DNA from: Sphyrna mokarran
Lineage: Eukaryota
Reading direction: 5' to 3'
NCBI GenBank assembly: GCA_024679065.1
Contig: JAGIQG010000031.1
Span: forward strand, 17,608,001-17,672,000
Length of the DNA stretch: 64,000 bases
Part shown: positions 9,929 through 55,060 of the stretch, in pieces
How the letters are laid out: every line of letters begins with the position of its first letter
Numbering within the stretch: position 1 is the stretch's first letter
Translations under genes and position numbers: made by a program
Notes under the pieces: generated by a model
Told to the model about the DNA's origin: nothing
Databases searched by the model: none
Seen by the model: only the letters and a program-made list of their open reading frames with translations

Positions 9929-10347
9929 GTTCTGACTGAATGTTCTGGTTTAAATTGAATGCTTACCCAGGTCTTGTGGCAGAGAGTCAAGTTGGTTTAA
10001 AGATAACTGCCTTGATATTTGTGTTTAAAATATGAGAGTCGTACCTGTCAGAAATTACCTTAAAAATGGTTCCACTCTGTGTGTGTTCTTGATAAATTGA
10101 TGTTTTTGCTCAACTGTGTGAGGCCTGAAGCCAAAAGAAGTGTGAATTGCCAGTGTACGTAAGCTGGTGCTATGCTCACACCACATGGATGTCTCTTGTG
10201 CCAAAAAAAGCTGTCCGTTTCTTCCTCCTCTGTGACGATTCTCCTCTTCACTTCCACAACATTCACTAGTCCTATGGTTCTCCCCCTCCCTCTCCTTACC
10301 ACTCCCCTTCCCTCACTTGTTTCTCCTTGTCCCGCTTTGTTTTACAG

Positions 10348-10420
10348 TCACTGTATCCATCAGATTCTAGACAGTGTTAATCATATTCACCAACATGACA
10401 TAGTACACAGGGACCTGAAG
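10348..10420 (+). CDS. CAMK2B: CAMK2B exon 6a (73 nt, gamma-like alternative): (S)[24 protein letters not shown]
   Basis: Boundaries ttttacag|TCACTGTATC...GACCTGAAG|gtcagt; long pyrimidine tract upstream; HRD motif intact; phase 2 to 0. Confidence 0.92.
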
Positions 10421-11311
10421 GTCAGTATCTTCTCACCTTTACAGAAATGAAGAAAAAGACCAAAAAAAATAAAATAATGATACGCTTGAGTCTAAAATCA
10501 TGTCATGTTTACAGGTGCAGAGTTTATTCTGCCTCTTATCGTTCGTCCTCTTTTGTGTCGTTATTTTACATTTTTTTGAAAAGACTTACTTTGCATGGCT
10601 ATCACTACCATTCCGAAAAGTCTCTTGGGTATTCAGCCGTGACAGGCATTCGAAAGCAAATTGATGGGGTATAACAAAATAAGGATCAATGTTACTTGTG
10701 TCTCCAACCACCCAACTCCCTTCTGCTTTTGTGATGCTTCCATCACCTTGTATGCAAGGTAAAAAAAAAAGAATTTGTGTTGCAGTGAAAACTTGCTGCG
10801 CATATTGGAAACAGTATGCCCACCCTCCACAAACTTGTATGTGTTTAAAAGAAAAATGTTGTTCTGGAAAGCATTACCCCTCATGACCTTTGAGACTTCA
10901 AGGGCACGATTGCACTTCCACCCCTCCTGTCCTTCTTGAGTCTGTCATGCTTTATTGCTCTTGACAATGTTCTTTAAGAGAAGCACAGACTGGTTTATGG
11001 CCAGGGCCAAGCATGAGCATGGAACCACTTCCACTTCCTCGTGGCAGCTGCAACAATCTCAATTTCAACCAATTGCTGATATCAAATGAGCAGGGATTAC
11101 AGGGTCATTACGGGGTTCTGCCTGCAAGGAACTTAGTCTCAGCTTTGGAGCCAGAATGCAGACTGTTGTAGATCAACCGTAGGATTGGCCATCAGGGCAT
11201 AGGCCAGCAGTAGTGTCAGATACAGGCAACTAAGGTCGAGGTTGAGTTTGGACTGCAGTCAACTGAAGTTCAGTAATAGTGTTAGCCTGCAGGTCATTGA
11301 AGATTAAGCAG

Positions 11312-14089: not shown

Positions 14090-14377
<288 letters not shown>

Positions 14378-17627: not shown

Positions 17628-17774
<147 letters not shown>

Positions 17775-22685: not shown

Positions 22686-22990
<305 letters not shown>

Positions 22991-38082: not shown

Positions 38083-40877
38083 AATTAACTTATTGACTCT
38101 TCTTGTCATTCAACCTCTGCTGTTCTTTTATCATTCTGATATATCATGTGAAGTTAGAGGGATGGAGATATTTAAGGAAAAAAGTCAAGAAAATTGGTTG
38201 CAAGTAGTTGAAGTGTCTGCAGATTTTGCTGGAAATAGTTTGTTAAGGTGCGCTCGTGATCAAAGCATGAGGAGTAGACAGTTTGAGAAGGGACATGAGG
38301 CTGAAGTCAGTATGTAGCAGGAGTGGGTGAGACATGGAATTGAGAATGGGTGGGGGTTCAAAAGCTAAGTCATTGATTTATAACATGTATGTAGAGACCA
38401 AATGTTTTGTATGGGACCAGTTTCTAGCTGCAGTACAATTTGTACACGTTTTCCTCAGTACCTTTGCATTTTCAGCTTCACTTTTCACCTTTTGTGAAGC
38501 ATATATTTTTGCACGATAATAGATTATTTTAAACAGTCTCATATCTCAGAGTGTCTCATATCATGCACATGATCATTCTTTCATTTTACAATTCTTTACA
38601 GTGACTTCGAACATTTTAACTGCAAGATTTGAGGAGCTTAACATTTTTCAACCTTCATATGAAAAAAAGCTATTAAATTTTTCCATTGCTGTACTTGTTT
38701 CCTCATCTGCTTATTATAAGAATGTTGGCAAATCAAGGATTGGTAACTTAAAAGAAAATGTTTCAGGGATTTCAAGTCTGCCGGAATAAAAGTGTCAGCT
38801 TCCCACTGTAATTGTCACTGCAATTGTTCACCTCCTTCCTTCTCTGATTCACAGCAATGTGTTCTGACTCATCATGAGAGTGTCAGACTGCTCAATATGG
38901 AGAGCAAATATGATTGTGCAGCATGGATGATAAGATCTGTTCAGTATAAGGGCAGTATTCAGTTTGTCTTGCTCCTCCATTCTGTGAGTTGGGTTTGCTC
39001 CTTCCCTGTATTTATATACAGCCTGTTCAGTATAAAAGCAATGTCCATTACATGTCATAGACCTTTGTAAGTCCAACTACTTTTATCTCCTTTCTGATAA
39101 ATTACCTTGGACGAATTAATGGACACATATTTATTCCAAAGCAGCCCATGTTCTGACGATAAGGAATTATAATTGTGAAATTATGACAGTTATACATTTT
39201 TTACTTAATTTGTGGGAAGTGGGAGTCGTTGCCAAGCTATCATTTATTGCCCATCCTGAACTGTCTGATTAATCATACCTGGTTAATGTCTGCTCTAGCT
39301 TGCTCTCCCTTTGATAAGAAATAATCTGGAAAAGAATGCCTGTTCCATCTATGCACATTCCTGTTGATTGATCCTTCGCTTTTGGTTACTCTAAATATTG
39401 ACTCCAGCTTGGCAATGTGTTCAGCACAATTGCACTGCCTATATTTGTAGCTGAGACACCCTTGGTCCTCCCTTCCAATTGGCCCTCCATTCATGGTGGA
39501 GAGAGAATTCAAGGCAATTTGCTCCCCTGCACTCTCAAGCGTCCCATGCTTAATTGTGAAGCTTGTTATCAGAAGCAACCCTGGATCACAGCAGACTGTG
39601 TGCATTCTCAATCATCAGTCCAATTAAAGGATACAGATGTTAAAATATTAATTCACGGCATGCGGGTTTTGCTGGAAAGGCCAGCTTTATTGCACATCTG
39701 TACATGGCGTTGAGAAGCTGGTGTTCTGTCTGCTGGAGCCACTGCAGTGATATTCCTACAGCAGTCACAGCAGTGTTGGCATGATTGAGTGGCTTGGTTA
39801 GCCATTTCAGAAGGTAGTTCAGTGATTTAACAATGAGATTTGAGCTCACGTCGCTAGGTCATAAGTCTGGATCTCTAGATTGCATGTCCAGTAATGTAAC
39901 CAATGGTGCTACAATTCTCTGAAGCCCAGGTAATGCACCTGCTATCACCAGGAAAATCTTTCCTGACAGCACTTGCTAGACAAGGTATCTGGAATCTGTT
40001 CGGTTGAAGGAGAGAAGTGTTTCCTGTTCCTGATATACTGGTGGGTTTCAATTCATTGACGACTGTGTTTGTGTGTGTTGTGAGTGAGAATAGTTGGTGG
40101 GGATGATGTAGATGTTGCTAGACAAAGGAAGAGAGAAGAGAAGGGAAGTGAACAAAATTGCATGATGAAGCAGAAGCATTTCTGGGAGGATAGGGTAGCA
40201 GATATTGGCATGCAAAGTTAGTAAAATTTGAACCATTGTAGAATTAATGAGATTTCTGCTGAAGTTAGAGGGTGTCTACATATTTGCTGTTTCTGTTCAG
40301 TTTATAAAATTCTGAGTCATATTTACCCTGATTTGACTGAACTTTCAGAAGAAAGGTAGAATTCCTAATTATCTGCTGCAACTTATGCCCCAGTAAGCTG
40401 CCAATATTGTTGTGGTTCCCAGCTTAGCTGTGAAATTGCATCCATGATCAGCAAAATTTGAGAGTTAAACAGGATATCAAAATTGTACACCAAAAAAAAT
40501 GAGAATCTCTTGGCATTGTGAAGAGACAGCCTCTGGAGATCTCTTTCATGCCCCTGTCTGGTTCATTGATTTTTGATGGTTGATGTAAAACCAGTTAAAC
40601 TCCATAGTATGAGAAATACTTTGAATCACTGTAATTGAATTGGAGCCTTAAATAGTTATCCATGTGCATCGTTCCAGATGCAGTGGTCAAAGAAGTGCCA
40701 AATTTCGATTTATATGCAAAAAAGGAGTTCCAATGACTGCAGATGTGCATCAGGATTTGACAAAAATTCATAGAAATATGTGGCATAGTAATCCACCTGG
40801 AATAAATTCAGTGTGTAGTGAAGCAGTGCTGAGTGTTTTGCTGATGTTACTTGCTTTCTTTTTATTCCCGCCAACAG

Positions 40878-40949
40878 TGGGCAGACAAACCACTGCGCCA
40901 GCTACAATGACAGCTGCCGCCAGCGCGACTGTTGGTCTCGTTGAACAAG
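40878..40949 (+). CDS. CAMK2B: CAMK2B exon 13 (72 nt, F-actin-binding variable exon): [24 protein letters not shown]
   Basis: Boundaries ccaacag|TGGGCAGA...GAACAAG|gtagac; phase 1 to 1; resembles mammalian [25 protein letters not shown]. Confidence 0.94.
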
Positions 40950-42196
40950 GTAGACGTGTGCGGGCGGACACTGCAGGTGGAGGGCATGCTCAGAACTAAT
41001 GCTCTGCTTTCATATCTTGTGAACGTACCCTACCTCATGTATTTGTTGTCTGAATATTTCAATTCCATTTTAACTGGCTGGGCAGCAAGGAGAAGTTTTG
41101 GGTGATTTTTTTTTTAATGTGAGGACCATCAGAATGAGAAAGGAACTCCCATTACAGGCACTCAATCAAATAGGCATCTGTTTGATTTCAAATAATTTGT
41201 GAATGAGTAATGCTTGAGATCAGCCTTTGAGCTGCTTGGCAAAAGCATATTTTAGCCTAAGTATTAATGTACAATTGGTGCAGTTCTTCTGAATGGTTCA
41301 AGTTGATGACAGTAAACACCTGCTGTATCCAAAGGCACTGACCATAAAGTTAGAACTCGGAAAACCAGCAAGCTGCACTTGCTGTGTGGTATAGCCGAGA
41401 TTGCAATGTCCATTTGCTGCAGTCAGTTTGGTTTACATGTTTTTTAACCTTACTGGTCCTTTAAGTGTCTGTCTTGCTTGATGCAGTCTATTTTGTATGC
41501 CCCTGTCTTGCACAACTGTGCAATGTTTTATGTAGCACAATTGCTGTCGTCTGAAACAAGTCAGGTGTGGGTTTTAAACATGACAAATTGAATTTGGTTT
41601 CCTCAGTTTAGATCATCTCTAATATTTAACAGGCGCGCTAGGCATTGACATATCTTTCTATCTGATCTCTGGGGACTAATCTTCCACTTAATTTTTCGAA
41701 GGGCAATGGTGTGTTGTTCGAGTGAGAGAAAGAATGCTGTAGAATATTTGGATTAACTAGTGTTAATGAGTTTGGAATGCTGCCTGTCCAAATTGTGCCT
41801 GGATATATAAGTCCAGTCAAAAGAGTACTCTTTCATTCCTCTCAGTTGATACGTGCATTATGATGTGCCACCATCACACAAACAGAAGCCTGCCTCTTCC
41901 TTCCCTACTTGAAACCCTTACCTGAATTGAATAATCTAACCTTAACTAGAACACCCATTAAGGTGTTAACATGGACTTGCTCAACCTGACATTTGCCAGC
42001 CTGGGTCCCTGAACCTGACTGATAACCCAGTGATCTTAGCTAGGTCTTCCAGTGTAGACACTGAGTGAAGAGAGTATTGGGCTTGAGCATTATGCAAGAC
42101 TCATTACGCCAGCTGACATTCAGTCTCAGATTTAGATAGTAGTTGTGAATATGCAAGTCTGTGCTAAGGAGGAGAGGTGGTGTTGACAGTATTGTA

Positions 42197-53500: not shown

Positions 53501-55060
53501 TCAACCATATATTGGCCTATGTCTTCAGGGTTGACAAGTTAATTGATTCACTGCTTATTTATGTATCAGTGGTTATTAGCTGACAGTGAAGTTGAGCAGC
53601 AGATGTGAAGAGCATGCTGCAAGTTTTACCCACCCTTGATTTCCAGTTCTGCTAAGGTGGAAGGTTCAGAGCGGAGGTGAGAGGCTTCCCCTAAGAGACA
53701 AAAAGACAGGAAGAGGGCAAGGCAATTTATGGTGCTCTTAGGCCTCAGCCTTTCTTCTTGTACAAGACTGGCAGGGAAGGAGTTAAAGACAGCAACTAAC
53801 GTTTTTAAAAACAAAATTTGGAGGGGAATTTAAGTAAACAAGGAGAACATCTCCAAGTGCCTTATTTTAACACCGTGGATTAATCCCTGGTTTTAAAGCT
53901 ATGCAAAATAAATTAATGACACTAATGCTCCGGTGACTGGTTTCAGAGAAGTGTAACGTTAACACAAAATACAGCAACAATCCCATATGGAAGCACAGAG
54001 AGAGTCATAAAGGTACACACTGCAACATTCAGGTCCATCATTACATTCTGCATGAACTATCCTTTACATAAAACCCCTTACTTGAAACAAGTCCTTTGGT
54101 CATTCATTTTGTTACAATGATCATTTGTTTTTTTGCTTGACGGTACATGTAGTGGGGGTAAGAAAACTATTTAGGGCTTGGTATTGTTCACCTGTGTGGT
54201 AGCGTATTTTTACATTCTACCTACAGTCTTGGTTTCTCTCTTGCTTCCTTTTGACAGCACTCTGCCCTGTTCTGTCCCCTTCCTTTTATATTTTAATTTG
54301 CTGTTTATCTACCAGGTTGCACATTTCTATCCATCATTGGTCTGTTGGAGGGATGATGGGAAAACCAAGTGGACCTTCATTCTGAACTAGTCTAATTGTG
54401 TACTGAGAGGTTCAAGGTAGTAAATGAGCATCTTCAGCACTACAGGGAAGTTCATCTTGAAGTGAAGATTTTTCAGAAGGCAAAAAGGTTTTAAAAGTAA
54501 TCAGCTTGCATAGATAATGTCTACTGTGGCACTTTGCACCAGGTTGTGGAAATTGGTCTACATGTTTGGTGAATTTTCCCTCTCAGCAAGATTGGTAAGA
54601 AGAATAGGAATGACAGCAGCAAATAATGAAAGCTGTAGATTTTAAGAAGAAGGTGTTTTGTTTCCTCCAAGTATCCTTCACCAAATGAATGAAGAAAAAA
54701 TACAGGAAAAGGTTTTAAAATAGTTAAGAGTCCATTTGACAACAGTTGTTGCTGGTATCACTCCAAGAGAGCAAGATGTTTACAAATGTGCATCAAGTTA
54801 TTTATTCAGTGCTCATCAGTGTAGATTCTTTTTGTATACAGTTATATTCCCTCTAAGTACTCTTATACCATCCCAGGCTTTTGCTTCTCAATCAGATGCC
54901 AAAAGAATAGAAAGTGTGGGATGAGCATCTTCAGTTCTGTGCAGAAAATTGTTCTGGAATTGTTTTCGTTTGAGTAGAGAAGATTAAGGGAAAATTTAAT
55001 GCTTGAAATTATGATAGAGTACATAAAAAGAAACTGTTTTCACTGGTAAAAAGGTTAGTA

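Follow-up and report, generated by a model that had tools for sequence, protein, structure and literature searches.

Why should a gene for the beta form of CaMKII contain an exon whose peptide is almost that of the gamma form? This question is raised by a 64,000-nt stretch of the Sphyrna mokarran genome (the window), in which exons 5 to 8 and the splice-site elements described below lie on the + strand. Exon 6A of CAMK2B (10348-10420) is 73 nt long, with AG directly upstream and GTCAGT directly downstream. The first base of this exon completes the serine codon opened by the last two bases of exon 5 (447-512), the upstream common exon, and 24 residues are then encoded. The best PDB match of the peptide is human CaMKII-gamma (2v7o), with identity at 23 of 24 residues and D for E at the remaining position (E = 8.3e-9); an earlier sequence-only reading had placed 6A one residue from the gamma peptide, and this match bears it out. 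A second 73-nt exon, 6B (14272-14344), which is of the type used in mammalian beta and alpha, follows after an intron of 3851 nt, and its peptide is the same as that of delta 6B in this genome. The two exons are homologous neighbours that agree in length and phase and have intact splice sites. Of their 24 residues 16 are identical, as are 41 of the 72 bases, and the eight residues that differ sit just upstream of the catalytic HRD motif. When exon 5 was joined to the downstream common exon 7 (17667-17769) through either 6A or 6B alone, 80 codons were read with no stop. With both exons included, the frame closed at codon 70 of 104; with exon 6 skipped altogether, it closed at codon 28 of 56. 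As far as sequence can tell, 6A of CAMK2B is very probably one of two tandem kinase-domain exons, likely spliced one at a time, with a single origin before the CaMKII genes split. Messages including or skipping both exons would meet an early stop and may be removed through nonsense-mediated decay.

Several other features of the gene were observed. The acceptor of exon 7 (17640-17666) is pyrimidine-poor and ends in CAAAG, as does that of the gamma gene. A 66-nt linker exon with AG/GT ends lies at 53947-54012 and was first matched by the shark isoform P0138 among 11 isoforms mapped. Another linker exon at 40877-40975 has a short form that stops at 40948 and a form longer by 27 nt in isoform P0091, indicating an alternative donor. 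The linker exons of CaMKII have been treated previously (PMC4801060).

The likeness of 6A to gamma could also reflect copying between genes. Exon 6 of this genome's own gamma gene (C905:24032664-24032736) is separated from 6A by two substitutions in 24 residues and by eight in 72 coding bases, and 6 of 22 shared codons differ at silent sites versus 184 of 328 in the other exons (p = 0.013). The acceptors of the two exons have 15 of 20 bases in common, and exon 4 of beta and gamma is similarly close (4 of 18 shared codons; L056:7278-7334 versus L053:2184-2240). These values speak for an old pair in which gene conversion, from gamma into beta 6A or in the opposite direction, took place shortly after the two genes separated. 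However, silent divergence is equally low between beta 6A and delta 6A (4 of 18 shared codons, p = 0.027) and between gamma exon 6 and delta 6A (6 of 18, p = 0.026), despite six residue differences (the beta and delta 6A peptides are identical at 18 of 24 residues). A count by eye gave only 2 differences in 73 bases between each delta exon (6A and 6B) and its human counterpart, compared with 13 of 73 for gamma exon 6 and 15 of 73 for beta 6B. The delta exons are thus nearly unchanged from fish to human, and selection is able to keep the silent sites of these exons from changing. Moreover, beta and gamma are sisters, so that shared derived residues are expected, and the D residue is found in beta of both sharks and ray-finned fish, so that any conversion must be older than their split. 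Constraint therefore explains the low silent divergence better than conversion, and a very old conversion between beta and gamma is unlikely. Recent conversion and misassembly are excluded by the eight differences in 72 bases, and the near-identity to the species' own CAMK2G exon at silent sites, which the sequence-only reading had named as evidence against its view, was not seen. As side observations, exon 5 of beta and gamma is also low in silent differences (7 of 21 shared codons), the near-unchanged delta copies (C1:117746110-117747167) point to strong silent-site constraint, and the gamma exon 6 peptide starts with Q where the other exon-6 copies in this genome start with H.

The preferred reading, an old pair with two usable exons, was also compared with the distribution of 6A among proteins. 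The exact 6A peptide was present in 105 of the best 120 proteins (of 4460 matches); among those 105, 100 extend to exon 8, all of them with the beta marker, and five do not include that region. Such recurrence speaks against a chance likeness. The named sources are sharks, rays, reedfish, bonytongues, tarpon, herrings, a tetra and catfishes, and the chimaera sequences with exact 6A are fragments without the beta marker. Pairs of predicted shark beta isoforms carry either exon, and in two catfish gene models 6A is followed by 6B. A search of sequencing runs gave five with small shares (0.05-0.13), none of them recorded as RNA. Nearly all of the database isoforms with beta 6A are automatic predictions, a point that favours a silent relic, in which only 6B would be used. 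Such a reading is very unlikely, since beta of sharks, rays and ray-finned fish has retained the exact peptide, the splice sites of 6A are intact, and open, although diverged, versions persist in frogs and a snake. The example accessions for beta with a 6A-type exon are XP_041065996.1, XP_028653806.1, XP_040201953.1 and XP_026573785.1. Searches of the ESM Atlas returned generic kinase clusters only.

Frogs and mammals were surveyed with a score on exons 7-13 only, blind to exon 6, in which the best 120 of 8000 scored proteins were considered. A diverged 6A was found in 12 of 55 frog beta representatives, and 6A was found in none of 65 mammalian beta representatives, 62 of which contain a whole 6B, two begin inside 6B and one is without the region. 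The 19 further mammalian proteins listed in two 6B-led clusters were all 6B. One of nine bird and reptile proteins in these clusters, a snake's, was 6A-type, in a sample that leans to 6B and says little on birds. The human exon list also gives a single exon 6 for beta (bioRxiv 10.1101/721589). On these protein annotations, mammalian beta apparently lost 6A late. The sequence-only reading had regarded the retention of both copies as special to cartilaginous fish. This part did not hold: human and mouse delta keep both, beta 6A also occurs in ray-finned fish, frogs and a snake, and in the present genome gamma and alpha each have one copy. The frog 6A is identical across 12 representatives (P0289 and 11 others) and yet far more diverged than the fish exon; the divergence of beta 6A in tetrapods (frogs and the snake P0405) suggests a shift followed by renewed constraint.

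The identity of the gene in the window is central to the question, because 6A has its best match in gamma and several database isoforms with the 6A peptide are named gamma, which would be explained if the gene were CAMK2G or if a gamma exon had been misassembled into a beta gene. Four CaMKII genes are present in this genome, on contigs C894 (which holds the window), C905, C1 and C446. A protein tree built without exon 6 (263 sites) placed the window gene with named beta proteins and the C905 gene with named gamma proteins, with modest support of 72 and 68, respectively. At 12 sites outside exon 6 that separate human beta from galago gamma, the window gene is beta-like at eight, gamma-like at three and neither at one; the statement of the sequence-only reading that nearly all other diagnostic positions are beta-like was thus right in direction but somewhat strong. 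The window gene contains KEAY, encoded in exon 8 (22768-22851), and DFHR, and the C905 gene contains KDPY and DFHK; KDPY is found in all three other CaMKII genes. The neighbourhood agrees with the tree. The loci on C905, C446 and C1 have NDST neighbours (on C905, on the same strand and 0.45 Mb downstream), and none of 15 NDST matches falls on C894; thus, the combination of gamma markers outside exon 6 and an NDST neighbour, by which CAMK2G is recognised, is not that of the window gene. A hexokinase-family gene lies on C894, 0.74 Mb from exon 1 of CAMK2B. It is likely GCK, because its exon scores in the pattern of single-domain glucokinase (approximately 70 bits, versus 98 summed over the two domains of hexokinase 2). 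In the human gene order, CAMK2B has glucokinase nearby and is not known to have an NDST neighbour. A search for YKT6 using the Pfam Longin domain yielded seven matches in the genome, none of them on C894. In addition, this genome has its own gamma gene on C905 with its own exon 6, the gamma-named isoforms with 6A carry beta markers, and the same 6A exon occurs in beta genes of many other species. By tree and neighbourhood, the window gene is CAMK2B, and the possibility that it is CAMK2G, by synteny or by misassembly, is highly improbable. Beta markers are present along the full length of those isoforms to which at least one source gives the name gamma or delta (P0019, P0023, P0041, P0046, P0056, P0089, P0094, P0095, P0117, P0121 and P0124), and 6A has probably misled their automatic naming. 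The C1 gene is read as delta from its exons, which correspond to human delta 6v1 and 6v2, and the C446 gene appears alpha-like in its residues, as judged by eye.

The exon content of the four genes shows how the pair was distributed. In this genome, beta and delta contain 6A then 6B (separated by 912 nt in delta), gamma contains only the 6A type and alpha only the 6B type. Gamma likely lost 6B and alpha 6A, one copy each. Remnants of the missing exons were sought by local alignment of the exons with their flanks to the exon 5-7 introns of gamma and alpha (15 query-intron pairs, 60 shuffles each), and none was found. Three scores exceeded the shuffled maximum; one corresponded to the gamma exon's own acceptor, and the other two, obtained with delta 6B in both gamma introns, corresponded to a repeat with 186 matches in the DNA examined.

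A tree of the six exons of this genome grouped them by type and not by paralogue (support 99), with 6A apart from 6B of the same gene, and the two by-gene trees tested were both rejected (AU p = 7e-181 and 0.004). The 6A donors of beta, gamma and delta all read GTCAGTAT. The 6B acceptor of beta has 18 of 20 bases in common with delta 6B and 5 of 20 with alpha, and a 127-nt block that includes intron flank is common to beta 6B and delta 6B (86% identity, E = 7e-35). Short exons under strong constraint can converge, as reported for other genes (PMC9741552), but with by-gene trees rejected, the intron flank shared, the 6A donor the same in three genes and the A-then-B order conserved in both, separate duplications of exon 6 in beta and delta followed by convergence deserve almost no credence.

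The age of the pair follows from the order in which the genes separated. Outside exon 6 (284 residues), nine sites of this genome's genes favour (alpha,delta)|(beta,gamma), and one and zero sites favour the alternatives (bootstrap 100, in an unrooted quartet). A fly-rooted tree places the root between (alpha,delta) and (beta,gamma) (bioRxiv 10.1101/721589). With this root, the first split separates beta from delta, and the pair, present in both, is therefore older than that split. The first split of the four vertebrate CaMKII genes was the first genome duplication. The 6A/6B pair thus likely has a single origin and would predate the split of the four CaMKII genes, a date that depends on the paralogue tree and on a literature table entry, "Chordata", for which species are not stated. 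The sequence-only reading had arrived at the same date, before the vertebrate genome duplications, and the exon tree together with the rooted quartet supports it. Its explanation that the beta-gamma difference of mammals reflects differential loss of ancestral alternative exons is borne out in outline by the exon content of the four genes.

Fly CaMKII is A-like at exon 6, and among 47 representatives with the REFY marker, of which only two are named (both molluscs), 43 are A-like, none is B-type and four are neither. In a look-up of ten representatives aimed at lamprey, tunicate and lancelet proteins, four bore a species name, two of them molluscs and two teleosts. Type A is for this reason likely the old type and B a probable derived copy. 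The four residues that constitute the "gamma signature" are missing in fly and in delta 6A, and must therefore have arisen later, on the beta/gamma branch; the signature marks the form of 6A found in beta and gamma, and it postdates the pair itself. The history proposed for the pair is as follows. First, the old type A would have given rise to the copy B before the four genes split. Second, gamma would have lost B and alpha would have lost A. Third, and later, mammalian beta would have lost A.

The splice sites of the two exons differ in ways that may bear on their control. The 6A acceptor (10270-10347) has a long pyrimidine tract, with 85% C/T over 40 nt, and the 6A acceptors of the three genes are 85-90% pyrimidine. 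The AG-free stretches at these acceptors are 76 nt in beta, 83 nt in delta and 117 nt in gamma, compared with 14-52 nt at six other acceptors of the window gene. In beta (14242-14271) and delta, the acceptors of 6B are poor in pyrimidines, at 60% and 55%, respectively, and contain ACTAAC at approximately -30 and TGCATG at -9; alpha has neither motif. TGCATG, which we take to be an RBFOX-type word, also occurs downstream of 6A, at +172 in beta (10592-10597) and +90 in delta, with none within 400 nt in gamma; it occurs 35 times on the + strand of the window and is weak alone. Read as protein, the 6B acceptor gives PLVFACS, which was found in 52 of the best 120 short proteins, including named sequences of teleost beta and of squamates; the PLVFACS-coding acceptor is altered in beta models of bird, frog and chimpanzee.

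CaMKII alpha and beta show a brain bias, and QKI is low in neurons. RBFOX proteins are abundant in neurons, and a block by RBFOX on a neuronal exon therefore fits poorly. QKI has been reported to repress exons with ACUAA branch points, and the efficient skipping of a model exon needed two ACUAAC elements (PMC13004596); beta 6B has one within 400 nt. Long reads of mouse Camk2d showed that 6A and 6B are mutually exclusive, and that 6B makes up approximately 10% in the olfactory bulb and is absent from ventricle and soleus (PMC12060085). A neuron-permissive 6B would fit both the motifs and these mouse delta data. Herein, we tentatively propose that a neuronal splice switch has been left as a fossil in the CaMKII family, a proposal to which we give slightly less than an even chance. 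First, 6A would be the default exon, used generally in the ancestor, and the weak 6B acceptor, with a QKI-type branch point and an RBFOX-type word, would hold 6B off outside neurons. Second, in alpha and in mammalian beta, both genes of the brain, the neuronal copy 6B would have become fixed and this cassette lost; gamma would have fixed 6A, and in mammals only delta would have kept the switch. Third, non-mammalian vertebrates would make an undescribed beta-6A kinase, which would have diversified into additional types in frogs and the snake. The eight residue changes before HRD may fine-tune the kinase.

Two other modes of control were considered. When the paralogues were compared with one another over exons 5-7, and matches with more than eight copies in the DNA examined were dropped, no paired intronic elements emerged, only the exons, the flanks of 6A and 6B, and short or out-of-register matches; a docking-site model is thus unsupported by this comparison. 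Steric exclusion is unlikely because the intron between 6A and 6B is long in both beta and delta.

The pair reported here belongs to a known class. Two versions of exon 6 of CAMK2D (6A/6B, also 6v1/6v2) have been described in human and mouse (bioRxiv 10.1101/721589 and PMC12060085), and CAMK2D is included among genes with mutually exclusive exons (PMC5740500). The CAMK2D event has been dated "Chordata" (event 41 in the supplement of PMC8373072 and table S2 of PMC9741552), a class that in these papers means shared with tunicates or lancelets, and the residues of the exon cluster beside the predicted ATP site (PMC9741552). The beta pair matches this event in exon, length, phase, A-then-B order, splice sites, either-or frame logic and clustering by type, and the 6B peptide is identical. 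It differs in that the pair is in CAMK2B and that beta 6A has gamma-type residues. Exon 6 of the other paralogues is undiscussed in the accessible text of the published CAMK2D 6A/6B work (bioRxiv 10.1101/721589, PMC12060085, PMC8373072 and PMC9741552). RefSeq and UniRef isoforms of CAMK2B from sharks, rays, ray-finned fish, frogs and a snake already encode 6A-type beta, with the exact peptide in fish; these entries are automatic and uncommented, and some are named gamma or delta despite beta markers. Likewise, an either-or pair is whole in some paralogues and single in others for FYN compared with SRC, YES1, FGR and FRK, and for CACNA1C and CACNA1D compared with CACNA1F and CACNA1S (PMC9741552 and PMC4494069, in the parts accessible). 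CaMKII differs from these cases in that a late extra loss is indicated in mammalian beta. CaMKII is missing from section 12 of PMC9741552, on isoform separation after duplication, and "CAMK" is absent from PMC4494069 (main text and two supplement files) and from the main texts of PMC4417111 and PMC7954323. No paper was found in the searchable literature on the beta exon-6 pair, on the four-gene pattern of loss or on a shared repressor-type 6B splice site; subscription papers on CaMKII evolution and on zebrafish CaMKII, and bioRxiv supplements, may already state the first two. The beta pair therefore adds one more member to a known class, and represents in a sister gene the event already known from delta; its age had been tabulated before, and the mechanism is not new. 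The present additions are the pattern across the four genes, the observation that beta 6A persisted as far as frogs and a snake but was apparently lost in mammals, and a splice-site motif that can be tested.

Thus, the largest cluster of beta-gamma differences in the kinase domain is recast as splice forms that were kept or lost. This affects CaMKII trees that take in exon 6, as well as the naming of fish isoforms in databases. For work on beta in fish and Xenopus, a second kinase form is predicted, and the eight residues beside the catalytic loop offer a clean test. For human CAMK2D, in which the control of exon 6 has been called unexplained (PMC12060085), the shared splice-site features may provide a hypothesis at the level of motifs.
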